A stretch of DNA of 64,000 bases from Tricharina praecox (lineage: Eukaryota). Positions 3,511 through 59,244 of the stretch are shown here, one piece after another. The stretch's first letter is position 1. The number at the start of each line of letters is the position of its first letter. The DNA lies in the NCBI RefSeq assembly GCF_024521635.1, contig NW_026250411.1, positions 744,001 to 808,000 of the forward strand, given 5' to 3'. The notes under the pieces were generated by a model, which searched no databases, had not been told where the DNA came from, and saw only the letters and a program-made list of their open reading frames with translations. A program made the position numbers and the translations under genes.

Positions 3511-5408
3511 ATGGCCGAAGCAGTCAAGTCAGTCGCCTCTGCAGTGGCAGATATGGTTATCTCCAACGGTACGTTGCTTGACTCATGAGTCACTCACTCA
3601 CTCGAACTGACTTGTCAAAGTTGTCTACATCGATGAGGACACCGGTGTCGATGCGCCAGAAACCCTCGGCACCAAAGACCTCCCGTTCAAGTCGCTGCTC
3701 GGCGCTCTGATCCACTCCTCCGTGAAGGATGCGAGATACGAATCGCGGAAGTCCAAGACCGGCACACCGGAGGAGACCCGCGAAGAGTACAAGCCCGTCG
3801 CCAAAGCCGCGCTGAAAAAGGCTACCAACGCGCACTCTGCCCACATCAAGAAGGAAGCAAAGAAGGGCGAGCTTGCTGCGAAGGAAGCCGAGCAGAAGGC
3901 GGCGAGGGATGCACAGCTCGAGGCTGCCAAATCGGTCATTATCGTCGAGGATGCCAGCAAGCCTGCGGCCAAGAAGATCAAGATCAGGGACACTACCGCC
4001 CACCGCAACACGCGTGTGGCTATCTCTGGATGGGCTCACCGGGTGCGTCACCAGAAGAACATGATCTTCATCACTCTGCGCGATGGAACCGGGCTTCTGC
4101 AGTGTATCCTGGCGGATAAGCTCACCGAATCCTACGATGCTATGACTCTCACCAACGAGACCACCCTCACTCTGTACGGAGAGCTCAAGGAATTGCCTGC
4201 TGGTGCGCATGCCCCCGGCGGGCACGAGCTCATCGTGGACTACTACAAGATCATTGGGAAGGCGCCAGGAGGAGAAGAGGCGATCACCAACATCGTCGCC
4301 CCCGACGCCGACCCCCAGACGAAGTACAACTACAGGCATCTGACCCTCCGTGGTGACACTGCCAGTGCCACCCTCAAGGTTCGCGCTGCTGTCGTCAAGG
4401 CGTTCCGTCGAAGTTTCGATGATCTCGGTTTGCTCGAGGTCACTCCCCCGTGCATGGTTCAGACTCAATGCGAGGGAGGTGCCACTCTGTTCGAATTTGA
4501 CTACTACGGAGAGAAGGCATACCTCACTCAATCTTCGCAGCTTTACCTTGAGACATGTCTGCCCTCGCTCGGTGACGTTTTTTGTATCCAGGAGTCCTTC
4601 CGTGCCGAGAAGTCACTTACCAGACGCCACCTCAGTGAATACACTCACATCGAAGGTGAATTGGCTTTCGTCACATTCGACGACCTCCTGAACCACCTTG
4701 AAGATCTGGTCTGTCGAACGATCGACACCGTCTGGAACGACCCTCCGACCCGGGCCTTCATCCAGGAGCTCAACGACGACGCCAACAAGGACGAGAAGAA
4801 GCGCTTCGAGAAGGGCGAAGTCACTGAGCTCAAGCACTACGAGTTCAAGCCCCCCAGCCGTCCGTTCCGCCGCATGAGGTACTCGGAGGCCATCGAGTGG
4901 CTCAACGAGCACGGCATCCCGAACGAAGACGACGAGCCCCACAAGTTCGGCGACGACATTGCCGAGGCCGCTGAGCGCCGCATGACCGATATGCTCAACG
5001 AGCCGATCTTCCTCACCCACTTCCCGGTCGAGATCAAGGCCTTCTACATGAAGAAGGACCCGCAAGATCCCAGGGTCACCGAGAGTGTTGACTGCTTGAT
5101 GCCCGGTGTCGGCGAGATCGTTGGTGGTTCCATGAGGATGGAGGACCTTGAGGAGCTGTTGGATGCGTACAGACGTGTTGGCATTCCCGCGGATCCCTAC
5201 TACTGGTTCACCGACCAGAGGAAGTAAGTTTCTCGTATTGTCCTTCACATGATGTGTACAGATACTAATCCGCGCAAAAAGGTATGGAACCACGCCCCAC
5301 GGTGGATACGGTATAGGACTGGAGCGTTTCTTGGCATGGATGTGTGGTCGCTGGACTGTTAAGGAGTGCTCACTTTACCCCCGCTGGATGGGACGCTGCA
5401 CTCCTTAG
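3511..5408 (+). CDS. DED81: Cytosolic asparaginyl-tRNA synthetase
   Basis: OB-fold (GWAHRVR, LRDGTG), class II motifs YLTQSSQLYLE, FRAEKSLTRRHLSEY, GEIVGGS and PHGGYGIGLERFLAW. Introns at 3569-3620 and 5224-5281. Confidence 0.96.
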
Positions 5409-7047
5409 CTGGTCATTGGTCATCTAATGGTCATCTAATTGGGCCTGGAGACTCGTCTTCCAATGCTATCTCCGTTCCCGTTCCTTTTCTTGATCCTTTC
5501 TTCGTTTCTCATTTTTCCTTTTTCTTGTGTTTTTGTCGAATGGTTGTTTTTCTCTTGGGTGTAGCGGGTGATCGGATCGAAATAGACTTTTTTCTTCTAT
5601 GCAACAGGTGCCTTTCCATTGCCGGTGCCGTGTCCGGTCAGCTGGCCACTCATCTCATCTGGGTCGTTTCGTTTCCCCATCCCAGGCGGCCTTTACATAA
5701 AACCATCACTGTGTCGTGTGGGGTTTCGCTGGCCCCCACAATCACAACACAGCGACAAAGATGCTACCACGACGCCGCTGAGTGCATAACAGAACGAAGC
5801 TGCATATACCTTGGTAATTGCCGTGCAAATGGTAACATGTTTCCAAAGCTGGCAGTTCGTCTGATGGATTGAGGGCGACTGGCGGATGCGATACCGATCC
5901 TCGATTGATTGCTGCAGAAATGGGTATTTCCCTCATCCCATATCTCCATACTCTACTCTAGAGAATCTTCCCACCAGCCACAAAGCCAGCAGGCGGAAAG
6001 ATCGAAGCAGGGGATAGATTCCTCGAGGAAGGCAGAATGATCAATGATGTTGAACGTGCCACCTATCTGAGTGTACCCAGAGTACTCCGCATATGTACTC
6101 AAGTACCTATCTCCGTACATCGACGGACATGGGCGGGTGCATGCAACACAAGTCGAGTCAAGGCAGGTACGTAACCGCTGGCCCGGGGATCGCTATCGCA
6201 CCTACCTTTCTTTTTTGCTGTCGGAATACGGCATGATTGTCTACGCGGCATGCGTGCGAGTGATCGGACATGACTCCTCGACGACTTGCCATGGTACTGG
6301 CGGACTTCGAATCGTGATCGGCATGTTTGCGACGGTGGCGGTCCGCACGTATGATGATGTCCTGCCAGTCGCTACCCGTGCGAGTGCCTGGCATCCATTT
6401 ACTCTAGCGTATGGGGCTCCTAGGGAACGTCGGGACTCGGTTGGTTGCTGGGACGGGGACTCTCGAGCCTACAATCACGCGGTGTCCAATTGCACGGGCT
6501 CGAGTGGCCAGAGAGCAGTACCGCCGCCCCCTATGCTCACTCGGAGGGTACATTGAGATGACTGATTGTTTTGCGAGTGAGGGTGGTGAGGGTGGTGAGG
6601 GGAGGAGTGCTCCGGACGGTTCGTCGGTTTCGGCTTGGCGGCTGCTCAGGCTTCCACAGACCACACCAGAACTCAACGCTGCCGCGTCGTCGCCTCTCAC
6701 CCAAATTCGTTCGACGGACCGACGACCGACCCCGCGAAAAACACACACGCTCTCCTTCCAAGAGATATCCCGAGATACACATCGCATACCCACACCTACG
6801 CACACTCTCGCAACCCACCCTCGCTTTCGCTCTTCGCTCTCTCCTATGGCTTCATAATCCCACACACACTGACAGACATCCCCACGCACACCGTTTGTGT
6901 CCTTTCCGCACCACCACCACCACACCACACACCACACACCGCTTGCCAGCACAGACAGCATAGCATCACATCCTGCAAACACTCCCGAAATCCAATCAGA
7001 TACTTTCCTATCACCACACGCGGGCTCGTCTCCGCCGACTTTTCGCT

Positions 7048-9877
7048 ATGCCCGGAGAACTCCTGGTCCCCGCCGCACCCCCAGCACCAACAGCAACAGC
7101 GCCAATGGACGTCGATTCGGCTTCGAACTCCACCTCTACCGCTACCACCACGACCACAATCATGTCGAAATCGCTGCCGTCTAAATCCGGTGCTGACGCA
7201 ACTGCTGCTACCAAGACTTCGATTACTTCCATAGATCTTTATCTGATATCTGACGAAGACGCGCATTACGAACATGAGATATTGCGCGATCCCTATTCGA
7301 GCATCAAACCGTGGCTGCGGTATATCGAGCATAAGGTGCAGACCGGAACCATTCAGGAGCAAGTCTTTGTGTACGAGCGGGCGTGCAAGGCGTTACCGCG
7401 GTCTTACAAGATCTGGAAGAAGGTATAAACATCCCTCCCTCTTCCCCCTCCGCCTCGCGGGTGTTTCTTATTCCTGGTGGAGTTTTTTTTTACTTACCCA
7501 TTTCCATCATTAGTATCTCGACATGCGGGTGAAACATGTCTCCCCCCTCAATCCGGCCAAGTTCAACGAGGAGTACAACAAAGTCAATGACTGCTTCGAG
7601 CGCTCCCTGATCCTTCTCAACAAGATGCCACGCATCTGGCTCGACTATCTCACTTTCCTGCTCAAGCAATGCCTGATCTCCAAGACTCGGCGCGCATTCG
7701 ATCGCGCTCTCCGTGCCCTGCCGCTCTCGCAACACAGCCGGATATGGGAGCTGTACCTTCCGTTCGCCAACTCTGCGTCCGGTGAGACGGCGGTGCGCAT
7801 CTGGCGGAGATACATGCAGGTGCACCCCGAGGATGCCGAGGAGTTCATTGAGTTGTTGGTCTCGCAGGAGAAGTACGAGGAGGCGGCGGAGAAGTGGATT
7901 GAGATTCTGGACAATCCGAGGTTCAAGAGTAAGGAGGCGAAGAGTCACTTCCAGATGTGGAGTGAGCTGTGCGACCTGCTGGTCACCCATGCGCGAGAGA
8001 TCAAGAGCATCGACGTCGAGAAGATTGTTCGCAGCGGCATCAGCAAGTTCAGCGATCAGCGTGGCAAATTGTGGACCAGCTTGGGGACGTACTGGATCAC
8101 TAAGGGCGACTTCGAGAGGGTGAGAATCTATCCTCAGGCGTGGAGTGAGCCGTAGGAGTGCGTGCTGACGATCCGGAATAGGCACGCGATGCATTTGAGG
8201 AGGGCATCACTACAGTCATGACTGTCCGCGACTTCACGCAGATCTTTGATTCGTATACGGAGTTTGAGGAGTCGGTCATTTCGAGCCTGATGGAGGCTGC
8301 CGCAGCACGCCAAGAGAAAGGGAAGCTGGACGAGGATGCCGATTACGACCTGGATATCCGGATGATGCGATTCGAGCAGTTGATGGACCGCCGGCCTTTC
8401 CTAGTCAACGATGTCCTTCTGCGGCAAAACCCGAACAACGTCATCGAGTGGGAGAAGCGGGTCGGGCTATGGGGCGACAACAAGCAGGAGGTCGTACAGA
8501 CGTATACCGATGCCGTGGCTGCCGTCAACCCCAAGAAAGCGGTTGGGCAGTTCCATTCTCTCTGGGCTGGCTACGCCAAGTTCTACGAGAAGCATGGAGA
8601 TATCAGACAGGCACGGATCATCATGGAGAAGGCTGTTCGTGTGCCCTTCAAGTCCGTGCAGGAGTTGGCCGAGATGTGGATCGAATGGGCTGAGCTGGAG
8701 CTGAGGAACGACAACTTTGACGAAGCTGTCAAGATCATGGCCAAGGCCACTCAGGCTCCAAAGAGGAGCATTGTCGACTATTTCGATGAGACCTTGACGC
8801 CGCAGCAGCGGGTACACAAAAGTTGGAAGCTGTGGAGTTTCTATGTGGATCTCGTGGAGAGTGTCAGCACTCTCGATGAGACCCGGGCAGTGTACGAGAG
8901 GATCTTTGAGCTGCGGATCGCAACACCGCAGACAGTGGTCAACTATGCAAACCTTCTAGAGGAGAACAAATACTTCGAGGAGAGTTTCAAGGTATGTCTT
9001 CTACATTCTAGATAGGTAACTAGTGATAGCTAACATACGGTAGATCTACGAGCGGGGACTGGACTTATTCTCTTATCCGGTAGCTTTCGAGTTGTGGAAC
9101 CTGTATCTCACCAAGGCGGTCAACCGCCAGATCGACATAGAACGTCTACGAGATCTGTTCGAGCAATCCGTCGAGGGCTGTCCTCCAAAGTTCGCAAAGA
9201 CACTCTACCTCATGTACGGCAACCTCGAGGAGGAGCGCGGACTCGCGCGCCACGCCATGCGGATATACGAGCGCGCCACCCGTGCCGTCTCGGACGAGGA
9301 TCGCTTCGAGATGTTTGAATTCTACATCACCAAGTCGGCCTCCAACTTCGGGCTCACTTCGACGCGGCCAATTTATGAGCGCGCGATCGAAGCGCTGCCG
9401 GACAAGGAAGCCAAGGAGATGTGTCTCAAGTTCGCCGAGATGGAACGACGACTGGGCGAGATCGACCGCGCGCGGGCCATCTACGCGCACGCAAGCCAGT
9501 TCTCGGACCCCAGAATCTCCCCCACGTTCTGGGAGAAGTGGGAGAAGTTTGAGATCCAGCACGGAAACGAAGACACCTTCAAGGAGATGCTGCGCATCAA
9601 GCGCAGTGTCCAGGCGCAGTACAACACTGATGTCAACTTCATCGCGTCGCAGGCCCTGGCAAGAGGTCAGGCCAAGGGTGGTGAGCCCAGTGGCGACGAT
9701 CAGGAGAAGAATGATGCGATGGAGGCGTTGGATCGCGAGGCAAGGGCGCCGCAGGGATTCGTGGCCGCATCGACCGGTGCAATCCCCGGGAACATTGATG
9801 GTGCATCCGAGACGGCAGCACCCGTGGCAGCAGCACCCGTGAACCCAGATGCTATCGATCTGGAGATGGAGGATTGA
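7048..9877 (+). CDS. SYF1: Pre-mRNA splicing factor SYF1 (XAB2, HAT repeats), 4 exons
   Basis: YEHEILRDP...W.RYI, LMDRRPFLVNDVLLRQNPNNV.EW, HGNEDTFKEMLRIKRSVQAQYN. GT-AG introns at about 7423-7513, 8120-8181 and 8992-9043. Start codon uncertain. Confidence 0.95.
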
Positions 9878-53001: not shown

Positions 53002-53764
53002 TGGCATGGGGAAATAATGTGAGACGTGGGGAGTTCTGGAGTCTGTTTGGGGCACTTGCTTACCTTTACCTACTATTATACATACTTGTGTCTCGTCGTT
53101 TGGCGAGTGAGCTCGATATATGGGTGGTGTAATGCAGTATAAATACTATGGCTCGGTTGGTCGCCCCCCGATTATTTGGGGTATTGAGATGGTCCGTCTA
53201 GCTGCGGGATTGTCGGAAGCCCGTTCGTATGTACTGCACAACCCAACGGGACCTGGGATGAGTATACCTAGGGGTGCGGGAGCTGGAAACTTATGTGACG
53301 ACTTGGTTTGGCTACACATGTGAAAGTTACTCGAGTGAGACTATATGTATGAATACTATGATCGACAATATCCGGAAGGCTTGATATCATGACCAGTGTG
53401 GAGCGGACGGGGGGTATTGAGACCGAACGTGTGTATACAGGTCACCCAGTGTTCGCCTCAATCTTATGTATTTCGACGGAAAACAACGCACCACGAATGT
53501 GCCAATCATCGTCCGACCCGTGGCAGGTGGTAGTACGCATGCAACATCTGGTGAAACCTCATACCCCTCACGGCAGCGAAAACAAGTGTATGTACGGAAC
53601 TGTCGCCTGTGATTTTCGCTCCCGCGCCCTCACAACAGCAACACAGATACGCACTATCCTACAGTCAATCACCTTCCTATAGCTCATCATCATCCTACGG
53701 TCCACCGCCACCATCTCCCCCGCCTTTCGGTCGATCACGCCGTCGGTGAACCTTGCCACCACCA

Positions 53765-56700
53765 ATGTCTTTCGGCATCAGCATCGGCGACTTCATTGCT
53801 TTCGGCAATCTTGCGATGGGGGCATATGCTCGCCTCCAGGAGACCGGAGGGTCTGCGGCCGATTACCAGAGCCTGAAGCTCATGCGGCGGTCCTTCGGGG
53901 AGACCCTTGTCAGCGTGGAAACCGATTTGCAGAGCACGAACTCCTGCTCCCTACCGAAACCGCTCGTCAATGCAGCCAGGAAACATCTCAGCGAGTGCTC
54001 TCAACTTCTACGGAATTTTGACGAAATAACCAAAAAGTACGATGCTAGTCTTTCACAAGGAGGATCCGGGAAGAAGGTGAAAGACTACATTCGAAAGCTG
54101 GGTTGGGGCGGTATGAAAGACGCCACAAGGGAGCCATTTCGCCGCCTCCAAGAGCACATCACGGCGATAGATATGCTGTTGACCGTCAACAATGCGTGAG
54201 TTATGACTATCCACTAACAATGCATGAATTGATTGGTTTCCTCTACGCTTACAGGCACCGGATTGAGGAACTTTACGTCATCTCGCGAAGGAAGCAACTG
54301 GCAGAAGTTCCGCGAAGCCTTGATTGGAGCGACAACAAACCCATCAAGCTTATAGATGCGTTCGATAGACAGATTACAGTGCCGTATGAGTGGTGCGAAA
54401 CATGGGAGGTACAAGCCGATTCGAGCAGACGCAGTCAGGCATGAACCTTACAGTACACAAGGCCTTTCACGACGTACTACAGAGTAGCTTTCATGGCCGG
54501 CGAGAGAGGAAGTGGGTCGAAAGCATGGCATTTGAAATCTTCGACGAAGACAATAAAGCCGCAATGATTGCCCCAAAAAGCTGGGAAGACGTTATATCAC
54601 CAGGCAAGACCCTTTCCATGTCCATGCGACTGAAAAGGCAGGAAGAGCCGTCGCGAGGAACAGAGCAGGAATGTCCTAGTTGTCGAACTCTGTACAAAGG
54701 CTATGAAAACAGCAAGGCCCTTGAACGGGTTCGATGGTAACTTCACCTCAAATGATCCTGAGATTCTATCAGACTTAACGATCGCGTGTATCACGAAAGC
54801 CTCAAATGCAAGACGTGGTTTCAAGTGTCTTCGGCACCTCGAATCATGGAACTTTCAGACGATGACAGCGTTCAAGCTTTAGTTGACACTGCTATTGACG
54901 AGGCAAACGCGATGCGGATCTGCCGTTGGCACATTGTGGTCGAGCAGACTGAGCAGTGAGTTCTCTAAGAGTGTGGTTGGTGATGATGGCGGCTAAGTGA
55001 TGCCCGCCTGGCTTGATTCGATAGGCTGTGAGTCCTTCCTATCCGGAGAAGGTGATGATGATGGTGGCTGATGCCTGCCTGGCGTAATTCGATAGCCTGT
55101 GAGTCCTTCCTATCCGGAGAAGGTGATGATGATGGTGGCTGATGCCTGCCTGGCGTAATTCGATAGGGAGTGAGTCCTTCCTATCCGGAGAAGGTGATGA
55201 TGATGGTGGCTGATGCCTGCCTGGCGTAATTCGATAGCCTGTGAGTCCTTCCTATCCGGAGAAGGTGATGATGATGGTGGCTGATGCCTGCCTGGCGTAA
55301 TTCGATAGGCAGTGAGTCCTTCCTATCCGGAGATGGTGATGATGATGGTGGCTGATGACTGCCTGGCGTGATTCGTTAGATGGTAAGTCTTTCTTACCCG
55401 GAGATGGTGATGATGATGGTGGCTGATGCCTGCCTGGCGTAATTCGATAGGGAGTGAGTCCTTCCTATCCGGAGATGGTGATGATGATGGTGGCTGATGC
55501 CTGCCTGGCGTAATTCGATAGGAAGTGAGTCCTTCCTATCCGGAGAAGGTGATGATGATGGTGGCTGATGCCTGCCTGGCGTAATTCGATAGGGAGTGAG
55601 TCCTTCCTATCCGGAGAAGGTGATGATGATGGTGGCTGATGCCTGCCTGGCGTAATTCGATAGCCTGTGAGTCCTTCCTATCCGGAGATGGTGATGATGA
55701 TGGTGGCTGATGCCTGCCTGGCGTAATTCGGTAGCCTGTGAGTCCTTCCTATCCGGAGAAGGTGATGATGATGGTGGCTGATGCCTGCCTGGCGTAATTC
55801 GATAGCCTGTGAGTCCTTCCTATCCGGAGAAGGTGATGATGATGGTGGCTGATGCCTGCCTGGCGTAATTCGATAGGGAGTGAGTCCTTCCTATCCGGAG
55901 ATGGTGATGATGATGGTGGCTGATGCCTGCCTGGCGTAATTCGATAGGCTGTGAGTCCTTCCTATCCGGAGATGGTGATGATGATGGTGGCTGATGCCTG
56001 CCTGGCGTGATTCGTTAGACGGTAAGTCTTTCTTACCCGGAGATGGTGATGATGATGGTGGCTGATGACTGCCTGGCGTGATTCGTTAGATGGTAAGTCT
56101 TTCTTACCCGGAGATGGTGATGATGATGGTGGCTGATGCCTGCCTGGCGTAATTCGATAGGGAGTGAGTCCTTCCTATCCGGAGAAGGTGATGATGATGG
56201 TGGCTGATGCCTGCCTGGCGTAATTCGATAGGGAGTGAGTCCTTCCTATCCGGAGAAGGTGATGATGATGGTGGCTGATGCCTGCCTGGCGTAATTCGAT
56301 AGCCTGTGAGTCCTTCCTATCCGGAGAAGGTGATGATGATGGTGGCTGATGCCTGCCTGGCGTAATTCGATAGGGAGTGAGTCCTTCCTATCCGGAGATG
56401 GTGATGATGATGGTGGCTGATGCCTGCCTGGCGTAATTCGATAGGCTGTGAGTCCTTCCTATCCGGAGATGGTGATGATGATGGTGGCTGATGCCTGCCT
56501 GGCGTAATTCGATAGGAAGTGAGTCCTTCCTATCCGGAGAAGGTGATGATGATGGTGGCTGATGCCTGCCTGGCGTAATTCGATAGGGAGTGAGTCCTTC
56601 CTATCCGGAGATGGTGATGATGATGGTGGCTGATGCCTGCCTGGCGTAATTCGATAGGCTGTGAGTCCTTCCTATCCGGAGAAGGTGATGATGATGGTGG

Positions 56701-58263
56701 CTGATGCCTGCCTGGCGTAATTCGATAGGGAGTGAGTCCTTCCTATCCGGAGAAGGTGATGATGATGGTGGCTGATGCCTGCCTGGCGTAATTCGATAGG
56801 CAGTGAGTCCTTCCTATCCGGAGATGGTGATGATGATGGTGGCTGATGCCTGCCTGGCGTAATTCGATAGGGAGTGAGTCCTTCCTATCCGGAGATGGTG
56901 ATGATGATGGTGGCTGATGCCTGCCTGGCGTAATTCGATAGGCTGTGAGTCCTTCCTATCCGGAGAAGGTGATGATGATGGTGGCTGATGCCTGCCTGGC
57001 GTAATTCGATAGGGAGTGAGTCCTTCCTATCCGGAGATGGTGATGATGATGGTGGCTGATGCCTGCCTGGCGTAATTCGATAGGCAGTGAGTCCTTCCTA
57101 TCCGGAGATGGTGATGATGATGGTGGCTGATGCCTGCCTGGCGTGATTCGTTAGACGGTAAGTCTTTCTTACCCGGAGAAGGTGATGGTGATGGTGGCTG
57201 ATGCCTGCCTGGCGTAATTCGATAGGGAGTGAGTCCTTCCTATCCGGAGATGGTGATGATGATGGTGGCTGATGCCTGCCTGGCGTAATTCGATAGGCAG
57301 TGAGTCCTTCCTATCCGGAGATGGTGATGATGATGGTGGCTGATGCCTGCCTGGCGTGATTCGTTAGACGGTAAGTCTTTCTTACCCGGAGATGGTGATG
57401 ATGATGGTGGCTGATGACTGCCTGGCGTGATTCGTTAGATGGTAAGTCTTTCTTACCCGGAGATGGTGATGATGATGGTGGCTGATGCCTGCCTGGCGTA
57501 ATTCGATAGGCAGTGAGTCCTTCCTATCCGGAGATGGTGATGATGATGGTGGCTGATGCCTGCCTGGCGTAATTCGATAGGCAGTGAGTCCTTCCTATCC
57601 GGAGATGGTGATGATGATGGTGGCTGATGCCTGCCTGGCGTAATTCGATAGGGAGTGAGTCCTTCCTATCCGGAGATGGTGATGATGATGGTGGCTGATG
57701 CCTGCCTGGCGTGATTCGTTAGACGGTAAGTCCTTCCTATCCGGAGATGGTGATGATGATGGTGGCTGATGCCTGCCTGGCGTGATTCGTTAGACGGTAA
57801 GTCTTTCTTACCCGGAGAAGGTGATGGTGATGGTGGCTGATGCCTGCCTGGCGTGATTCGTTAGACGGTAAGTCTTTCTTACCCGGACATGGTGATGGTG
57901 ATGGTGGCTGATGCCTGCCTGGCGTAATTCGATAGGCAGTGAGTCCTTCCTATCCGGAGATGGTGATGATGATGGTGGCTGATGCCTGCCTGGCGTGATT
58001 CGTTAGACGGTAAGTCTTTCTTACCCGGAGAAGGTGATGGTGATGGTGGCTGATGCCTGCCTGGCGTGATTCGTTAGACGGTAAGTCTTTCTTACCCGGA
58101 CATGGTGATGGTGATGGTGGCTGATGCCTGCCTGGCGTGATTCGTTAGATGGTAAGTCTTTCCTATCCGGAGAAGGTGATGATGATGCTAGCTATGCCGA
58201 CTAAGTGACATTAGCCTGGCTCCAGACGACATGGAACGAGCCGCCTCGAGTGGTGGCGACTAA
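53765..58263 (+). CDS. Putative 50-exon gene: Helo-like/SesA-type N-terminal domain, fungal ubiquitin-like domain, Zn ribbon, and a micro-exon-encoded charged helical tail
   Basis: Normal exons 53765-54195, 54255-54408, 54462-54736 and 54800-54955 encode MSFGISIGDFIA, PIKLIDAFDR...P.EWC.TWE, W...I.PG..LSMSM and CPSC...C|LKCKTWF. These are followed by 45 3-nt micro-exons and a terminal exon 58215-58263. The first four exons are more secure than the tail. Confidence 0.7.
54956..58214 (+). repeat. 71-bp tandem array: a 68-nt intron-like unit plus a variable 3-nt micro-exon, 44 full units with degenerate first and last introns
   Basis: Consensus GTGAGTCCTTCCTATCCGGAGAWGGTGATGATGATGGTGGCTGATGCCTGCCTGGCGTAATTCGATAG+NNN. 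Triplets fall at 55025+71n for n=0 to 44, with no indels. The ORF track has no ORF across the array. Confidence 0.97.
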
Positions 58264-59244
58264 GCAAGTACCTAGGGCTGGAATTGATTGCACGTAAGTG
58301 CTACCCCCCGAACGGCCTTCACATATGGTGCTTGTGGTTCAAAAGGTCTTATTTTTCATGCTGGTCTAATTATAGGCCAGGTATCAGCCGGCAGGAGAGA
58401 AGAGAACAGAGGAAGGGGGGGTGTGGAATGTGTTCGTGGCTCCGGTCTTGGATATGTGTTCCGGTGTTGGCGTAAAAGTTTGTAATGAAACCAAATTGTG
58501 GATTGTGTATGGGAATCGACTGGAGATTGTGTTCGAGCGCATGGAATGCAAATGGAGTGGGCGTTAATCCGCTCCACTCACATCGAGTTCAACTCGAAAA
58601 GTCCGAACTCAAAGTGAATCGTTGCGACGTCGTCCGTGTCCGAACCTACTGCTCGTCTGCCGACAACCTTCGTCGTCCGAATCCATGGGACGCTGATGCA
58701 GACTTCAGAGCTCAACGGTAGATATGTAGGTAGGGTTTGACTCTTGCTCGCATCAGAATCCGGTACATACAGAAGAAAGAAAGGATGGTCAAATTCCACC
58801 CGAGAACTCGACAAGGCAGCCACGGCCGACGGCGCACTAGTTCATCAACCCTCGATCACCGTGAGACGAGCCTGGCGCGCGCAGCGAGAGTAGCGTGCGA
58901 ATTGGCCGCAGACACCCTAGGATACCTATTGGTTAGGCAAGCGGCCCCGACGTTAGTCACTCGTACATTCCTGTATGGGCGGGAGTAGGTTTAAACGCAT
59001 GTACACTCACTCGGAAAGTGATGTCCATTGTTTCCGAGTCCTTTCCGAGTCCTTTTCCTTTTCCTACTTTTTGTTTTTGTCTTTTGGGGTGTTCTCAACT
59101 TCTGATGTGTAGGCAGCCTCTTTCGCCATGGTCCATGGAGGACTCCTTTCCCTTCACGCCCTATATATGGCTCTGGCTCTGCGAGATACTACCTACCTAT
59201 TATATACCTGACGTGGCTGAGCCATGGTTTTAAAGATGCAGAGG

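Follow-up and report, generated by a model that had tools for sequence, protein, structure and literature searches.

Some genes of Schistosoma, the micro-exon genes (MEGs), contain exons of 3–81 bp and introns of up to 5 kb (PMC10526429). We describe here a 71-bp "satellite" in a 64,000-nt stretch of the fungus Tricharina praecox (contig NW_026250411.1, positions 744,001 to 808,000, forward strand). The whole of this stretch is referred to as the window, and positions are counted from its first letter. The repeat occupies 54956–58214 and is very probably the 3' coding part of a gene, which also encodes a SesA-like N-terminus, a ULD_2 domain and a zinc-ribbon-like motif; the spliceosome would join 45 triplets of the repeat into its messenger. 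Full-text searches of the literature, excluding subscription journals and supplements, found no tandem array of 3-nt exons. We regard the array as a new, extreme variant of micro-exon and tandem-repeat-intron architectures.

The MEGs and the array gene share a coding region that is divided into many consecutive very short exons, with lengths that are multiples of three. Because of these lengths, loss of a MEG exon keeps the reading frame, and protein variants are possible. Exon skipping in MEGs was reportedly described by DeMarco et al. in 2010. A run of consecutive symmetric micro-exons forming a coding segment was found in the array (45 exons of 3 nt, open in the phase of the gene). The introns of MEGs, on the other hand, are long and mutually unrelated, the exon lengths vary, and the products are secreted worm proteins. 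In the array gene each of the 45 exons measures 3 nt, the near-identical introns are 68 nt long, the whole is a 71-bp minisatellite, and the protein is of a fungal intracellular type. We read the resemblance as an analogy of architecture and not as membership.

Isolated 3-nt microexons are known in animals (Drosophila, cytohesin-1 and RPS24; PMC8042270, PMC6314551 and PMC12686416). In these cases, as in the array, an exon of 3 nt is recognized and kept, but the animal exons described there are isolated, regulated and placed between long introns, and none forms a run of 45. In recursive (ratchet-point) splicing of Drosophila and vertebrates, a 3' splice site stands directly before a GTRAGT donor, and successive segments are likely to be removed stepwise from 5' to 3', as also seems likely for the array. 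Ratchet points leave 0 nt and serve the removal of one very long intron, whereas in the array 3 nt would be kept at each step to build coding sequence.

Intron gain by tandem duplication offers another comparison (PMC4974935 and PMC2812944). There, as in the array, a duplicated segment with splice signals gives rise to new introns, and the two intron ends are alike. The cases on record involve one or a few introns, mostly alternative, in otherwise exonic repeats. In the array 96% of each unit is intron, the units number 46, and the remainder is fixed at 3 nt. The birth of introns from tandem arrays is also said to have been reported by Zhuo et al. (PNAS, 2007).

Fungal introner-like elements (ILEs) are scattered through many genes, exceed regular introns in length, and are predicted to fold stably (PMC3609843 and PMC4457414). 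Like the array, they place many near-identical spliceosomal introns in a fungal genome. The array units differ in being tandem and in their length (68 nt, against 53–63 nt in the other introns of the gene). The stable fold typical of ILEs was not found in the four units folded, with z values from -0.28 to +1.42.

The array was parsed as 46 head-to-tail units, which fill approximately 3.2 kb. Donors were placed at 54956, then at 55028+71i, and finally at 58152. The parts are as follows.

54956..55024, + strand: first array intron, 69 nt; 5' third diverged from the core units; carries CTAAG; absent from the RNA contig of run X1 (below).
55025..58151, + strand: array core, with 45 micro-exons and 44 introns of 68 nt.
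55025+71k..55027+71k (k = 0..44), + strand: micro-exons of 3 nt; numbers 1–24 covered by X1 record 5, with the letters seen for 1–10.
55028+71k..55095+71k (k = 0..43), + strand: core introns of 68 nt, from the GTRAGT..TAG parsing.
58152..58214, + strand: last array intron, 63 nt; 3' third diverged; ACTAAG 9 nt ahead of the final TAG; removal predicted.

Each unit is one canonical short intron with a GTRAGT donor, a branch-like site and a terminal TAG. The donor was GTGAGT in 34 of the 46 units and GTAAGT in the other 12, and TAG closed all 46. The branch-like GCTGAT was present in 44/46, with its A 24 nt ahead of the last G and the interval free of AG; the two edge units, first and last, show CTAAG in place of CTGAT. 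The branch-site consensus is CTRAY approximately 10–40 nt from the 3' end, with no AG between. By this measure the array resembles short fungal U2 (GT-AG) introns in the donor and acceptor ends of 46/46 units and in the branch motif of 44/46, and CTGAT is the presumed branch site. The spacers between adjacent introns, 45 in all, are variable in sequence and exactly 3 nt in every case. They comprise GGA (13), ACG (8), GCA (7), CCT (6), GCT (5), ATG (4) and GAA (2).

Tandem Repeats Finder reported a single array, at 54998–58198, with a period of 71, 45.1 copies, 94% matches and no indels. The pattern YAGNNNGTRAGT was matched 47 times in the window (1.44 expected), 45 of them inside the array, and this number was reached in 0/100 shuffles. 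With its head-to-tail units within the 10–100 bp range, homogenized core and diverged edges, the array has the structure of a minisatellite. On its minus strand there was no long frame, only open reading frames (ORFs) of 56–71 aa that restart in each unit.

An earlier note, made from the letters of the window, had proposed 46 near-identical introns separated by 45 variable micro-exons of 3 nt, starting exactly where exon 4 of the upstream gene ends. The full parse reproduced this arrangement and the proposed triplet counts exactly. The invariant TAG and the branch-like GCTGAT without a downstream AG were recovered as well, the latter with the two edge units as exceptions. The donor at 54955|54956 was placed both by the X1 contig and by the gene model.

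To follow the joining of the triplets, contigs of four runs (X1–X4) aligned to positions 53700–55027 were used. All four came from the RNA-type runs in which the gene was found, and X1 and X2 are represented by contigs, not reads. X1 record 5 is 397 nt long and had 0 mismatches over 325 aligned nt, with a word depth of 1923, similar to the 2103 of the other exons. It covers 54569–54735 and 54799–54956, that is, without the ordinary intron at 54737–54799.

Beyond 54956, X1 record 5 extends for 72 letters, which match nothing contiguous in the aligned stretch. The first 30 of these letters are micro-exons 1–10 joined, as confirmed by a script comparison with the triplets of the window. They are also letters 7–36 of the spliced string that the earlier note had predicted and proposed to look for in RNA; for micro-exons 1–10 this string was thus found. 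Since the X1 letters equal the predicted join, the micro-exons are retained and joined in genomic order, at least numbers 1–10 by their letters and 1–24 by length. Introns 1–24 are precisely removed in this contig, with letters seen for joins 1–10. The same contig confirmed the order of the first array units in the genome assembly.

The default annotation of such a locus would be different. The gene would end at TGA 54957–54959, or the array would be one intron of 3.26 kb or a 3' UTR satellite, with no micro-exon in the mRNA. Without splicing at donor 54956 the frame indeed stops immediately, at this TGA (ORF 54762..54959), and exons of 3 nt cannot be placed by gene finders or splice aligners. 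The contigs of X1 and X2, however, pass 54956 into joined triplets, and not into intron sequence or position 58215. Among the loose contig ends on 53700–55027, none began with the letters of 58215. The earlier note had named a transcript ending early, an unspliced array and removal as one large intron as outcomes that would speak against it; the form in X1 record 5 contradicts all three. We consider the default annotation hardly credible, and for the X1 form it is contradicted.

An artefact was also considered, either collapse or expansion of the genomic array in assembly, or a chimera in cDNA or its assembly. A tandem array of 3 kb is a difficult target for assembly, and X1 and X2 provide contigs rather than reads. 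A caveat concerning template switching by reverse transcriptase is raised in PMC2812944. Template switching in this array would be expected to delete multiples of 71 nt, not serial 68-nt GT..AG segments. The separately assembled RNA data gave the first 10 triplets in genomic order, and the array has an exact period, no indels over 44 units and an ordered variant structure. We give an artefact a negligible chance.

X2 record 6 is 1296 nt long, with 9 mismatches in 1082 aligned letters, and lacks the same three ordinary introns. It extends 126 letters past 54956 with a triplet string that differs from the third letter on and uses triplets not found in the array of the window. X2 represents a second organism, a near relative, and its tail has diverged much more strongly than the other parts of the gene. 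The soil metatranscriptomes X3 and X4 gave one low-depth contig each, on exons 1–2; none was near the array, and they provided no evidence either way.

A repeat-unit variant that does not occur in the window was present in both X1 and X2 (matched at 54982–55024). It resembles the first unit of the window in its 3' half but not in its 5' half. Ahead of the next donor, X2 has a spacer of 6 nt rather than 3. As this variant is not in the window, other copies must exist somewhere; it suggests related arrays elsewhere, perhaps with 6-nt micro-exons.

The array is attached to the following gene.

53765..54195, + strand: exon 1; ATG at 53765; SesA-like helical N-terminus; ORF and X1/X2 contigs aligned to 54195.
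54196..54254, + strand: intron 1, ordinary, 59 nt, GTGAGT..CAG; joint in X1 and X2.
54255..54408, + strand: exon 2; start of ULD_2 (Pfam PF22893, E 1.1e-06, above cut-off); contig pieces.
54409..54461, + strand: intron 2, ordinary, 53 nt, GTACAA..AAG; contig joint 54406>54460, cut +2.
54462..54736, + strand: exon 3; remainder of ULD_2 (PF22893, E 2.4e-11), and the half of a zinc-ribbon-like motif that has CxxC.
54737..54799, + strand: intron 3, ordinary, 63 nt, GTAACT..AAG; joint 54735>54799, cut +1, in X1 and X2.
54800..54955, + strand: exon 4, after which no ordinary exon follows; phase-2 end (..CA|G).
58215..58263, + strand: predicted terminal coding segment, with the last letter of one codon, 15 codons and TAA at 58261–58263; from translation of the joined model.

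The Pfam matches to ULD_2 (PF22893) were obtained with two exon translations and scored 44.1 and 29.2 bits, against a curated cut-off of 24.5. Exons 1–4 total 1016 nt, and the donor at 54955|54956 is therefore in phase 2. The joined gene model is open from ATG 53765 through TAA 58261–58263 and would encode 399 aa. A further GTAAGT is found at 58294, 31 nt past the predicted stop codon; it may be the donor of a 3' UTR intron or a chance match.

In phase 2, each micro-exon completes one codon with its first letter and opens the following codon with its other two. The residue is thus set by these two letters: E or D for GA, L for CT, Q for CA, R for CG, W or C for TG, and K for AA. The 45 triplets would specify 46 residues (11 L, 10 E, 8 Q, 8 R, 3 D, 3 W, 2 K and 1 C), followed by 15 more before the stop codon, to make an L/E/Q/R-rich tail of approximately 60 residues. 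The earlier note had spoken of one codon-equivalent per repeat. This held for the length of 3 nt, but not for the register, as the triplets are in phase 2 and are not codons.

Several features of the triplets bear on whether this reading frame matters. One of the other two frames of the joined triplets contains a stop. When the same triplets were put in random order 20000 times, an in-frame TGA arose in 69% and the frame stayed open in 31%. The triplet after ATG begins with A in 0/4 cases, against 6/8 after ACG (one-sided Fisher p 0.03). Nucleotide diversity was 0.60 in the three exon columns and 0.047 in the 68 intron columns. Of the minimal mutational steps, at least 7 of 18 fell in these 3 of the 71 columns (binomial p 5e-06). 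Taken together, these results are moderate evidence that the joined frame matters. Translation of the L/E/Q/R-rich tail is predicted, and selection on it is proposed.

Protein searches with the exon translations matched only two sequences, P0001 and the Logan-derived P0002, and one of these searches gave no match; no tail-bearing protein of the organism of the window was found in the collections searched. P0001 (Tricharina praecox, 350 aa) was 68% identical over exon 3. The gene model aligned from residue 1 with P0001, P0002 and P0005, the last of which, from Wilcoxina mikolae, is annotated as partial at the tail end. The homologs scored 70–83 bits for ULD_2 in Pfam. A SesA match was seen only in P0005 (residues 15–127) and was sub-threshold, as were the zinc-ribbon matches in the homologs.

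P0002, P0003 and P0004 are transcript-derived proteins from Logan (433, 430 and 437 aa, from contigs of 1.5–1.65 kb). They are mutually identical over approximately 355 residues, and their differences are confined to the C-terminal tail. This tail has approximately 85 aa, is rich in E, L, R and P, follows a common RWHVV motif, and varies by indels of 4, 1 and 2 residues and by local recoding. The tail of the gene model gave a weak local alignment with P0002, approximately 45 residues into the tail. Because P0002–P0004 vary only there and the model tail aligns weakly with it, a long, variable, helix-prone tail at this position appears to be a property of the family. The pattern in P0002–P0004 is what would be expected if the tails were written in small splice-joined pieces or were repeat-encoded. 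An AlphaFold model of P0002, built with 4 sequences, was too weak to use (mean pLDDT 52.3, the tail mostly below 50 except for a helix at 388–423).

Metagenomes were also scanned. The unit junction pattern gave 0 matches. An 18-letter word from the end of the exon gave 120 loci, all by chance, and in blastn none of them had more than 30 nt in common with the gene.

Some observations weigh against a spliced and meaningful array. A contig covers only 24 of the 45 joins, with the letters seen for only 10. The removal of introns 25–46, including the link to the terminal exon at 58215 and to the stop codon, is predicted from the joined model. X1 and X2 were labelled "RNA?" by guess, and the three GT..AG joints are the basis for taking them as RNA. 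In X1 the contig breaks off one letter into micro-exon 25, though the canonical product has no repeated 31-mer. Array-type intron sequence in X1 had a summed contig depth of 3699–8830, higher than that of the exons (1923–2103), with almost none for the ordinary introns. This may reflect slow or incomplete splicing, stable excised introns, or other expressed loci. The order of the residues in the predicted tail was no more amphipathic than random, as 62–65% of shuffles scored equal or higher. Finally, in the annotated Tricharina ortholog P0001 the shared exon 4 end (EQTEQ) is followed by just 6 residues.

The last two observations would fit a real splicing reaction with a functionless tail, in which a selfish or neutral minisatellite of an intron plus 3 nt is tolerated because it is spliced and each unit adds one in-frame residue of low complexity. 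The 8 residue types over 46 positions are in keeping with this, and the open frame is weak evidence when 31% of random orders are also open. Such an origin does not predict triplet columns that are approximately 13-fold more diverse than the intron columns, which serve as a nearby neutral yardstick, nor the avoidance of TGA after ATG. The related proteins also keep long tails of similar composition in the same place. We judge a functionless tail unlikely.

The high depth of array-type introns in X1, while ordinary introns were not abundant, would be accommodated if the introns themselves were the working product. The array would then be a host for 46 small or protein-binding RNAs, and the micro-exons mere spacers. 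A precedent is provided by the tandem introns of SNHG14 with SNORD115 and SNORD116 (PMC11608373 and PMC3413130). There, as in the array, dozens of tandem near-identical introns come from one transcript, but the SNORD115/116 introns contain snoRNAs and separate far longer exons that do not code for protein; the array has coding triplets and matched no RNA family at threshold. Each array unit has a GUGAUGAUGAUGG run (UGAUGA; unit positions 26–45) and CUGA approximately 10 nt on, which is box C/D-like, and Rfam gave weak matches to C/D snoRNAs. These matches reached 20.8–22.7 bits (E 0.14–0.55), the best of them 22.7, against a gathering score of 45, and the 9 matches are copies of one sequence. 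The CUGA is the presumed branch site and lies merely approximately 10 nt from the UGAUGA run, and the four units folded no better than their shuffles. The concentration of diversity in the three exonic letters would also be left unexplained. We thus consider introns as the working product very improbable.

With joining of the triplets into a coding tail as the preferred reading, a mechanism can be proposed. The spliceosome would remove the 46 introns singly by intron definition, the usual mode for short introns in fungi. This would suffice, because the signals are those of ordinary short fungal introns. Adjacent splice sites are 3 nt apart, presumably too close for two spliceosomes, so removal would probably be sequential rather than simultaneous, most simply from 5' to 3' with transcription, as in recursive splicing. 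The 45 triplets joined to exon 4 in phase 2 would then give the L/E/Q/R-rich tail ending at TAA 58261. Any donor could pair with any later acceptor and stay in frame. No isoform with a skipped micro-exon was seen; the end of the X1 contig in micro-exon 25 and the tail variation of P0002–P0004 were the only hints of skipping.

The variation among the units gives an indication of how the repeat arose. ACG and ATG were always found between a TTAG acceptor and a GTAAGT donor (12/12), and the remaining triplets between an ATAG or GTAG acceptor and a GTGAGT donor (33/33). The earlier note had limited donor variation to the R of GTRAGT, which was upheld, but variation was not confined to the triplets, as 10 of the 68 intron columns vary. 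The edge units have diverged on their outer sides only, the first in its 5' third and the last in its 3' third. Within the array, identical blocks as long as 271 nt are found more than once. Because the edge units diverge only outward and the triplets are linked to both flanks, the duplicating module is exon-centred, consisting of the acceptor half, the triplet and the donor half. This module sits within one or two formerly ordinary introns and has been homogenized as minisatellites are. Gain or loss of a 71-bp unit would shift the mRNA by exactly 3 nt, so the tail would be able to change in length and sequence quickly without a frameshift.

A further proposal, which we make tentatively and hold to be possible rather than probable, is that the array is a built-in generator of diversity. 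Its interchangeable introns would emit a family of tail variants in each cell, and recombination would rewrite the tail between strains in steps of one residue. SesA domains are otherwise found on fungal NLR-type immune and incompatibility proteins. In view of the SesA-like N-terminus of the host protein, the tail could therefore be a fast-evolving module for recognition or oligomerization. As part of this proposal, the unit variants of X1 and X2, one of which adjoins a 6-nt spacer, hint that the Pyronemataceae contain a family of such arrays.

If the reading of the array as joined micro-exons is correct, at least 24, and probably 45, consecutive exons of 3 nt are correctly spliced by an ordinary spliceosome. 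This bears on long-standing ideas about the minimal size of exons and the steric exclusion of neighbouring splice sites, and the array is a natural substrate on which the order of intron removal could be studied. The array would also be a design for writing protein in which a tandem repeat loses 96% of its length and slippage always leaves the frame intact, even though the unit length is not divisible by three. It would represent a live example of intron birth by tandem duplication. Annotation is blind to such a gene at several points: gene finders halt at the TGA in the first donor, the array is hidden by repeat masking, and exons of 3 nt escape splice aligners. Annotated orthologs end abruptly or are marked partial. 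Because of these blind spots, similar genes may have been widely missed.

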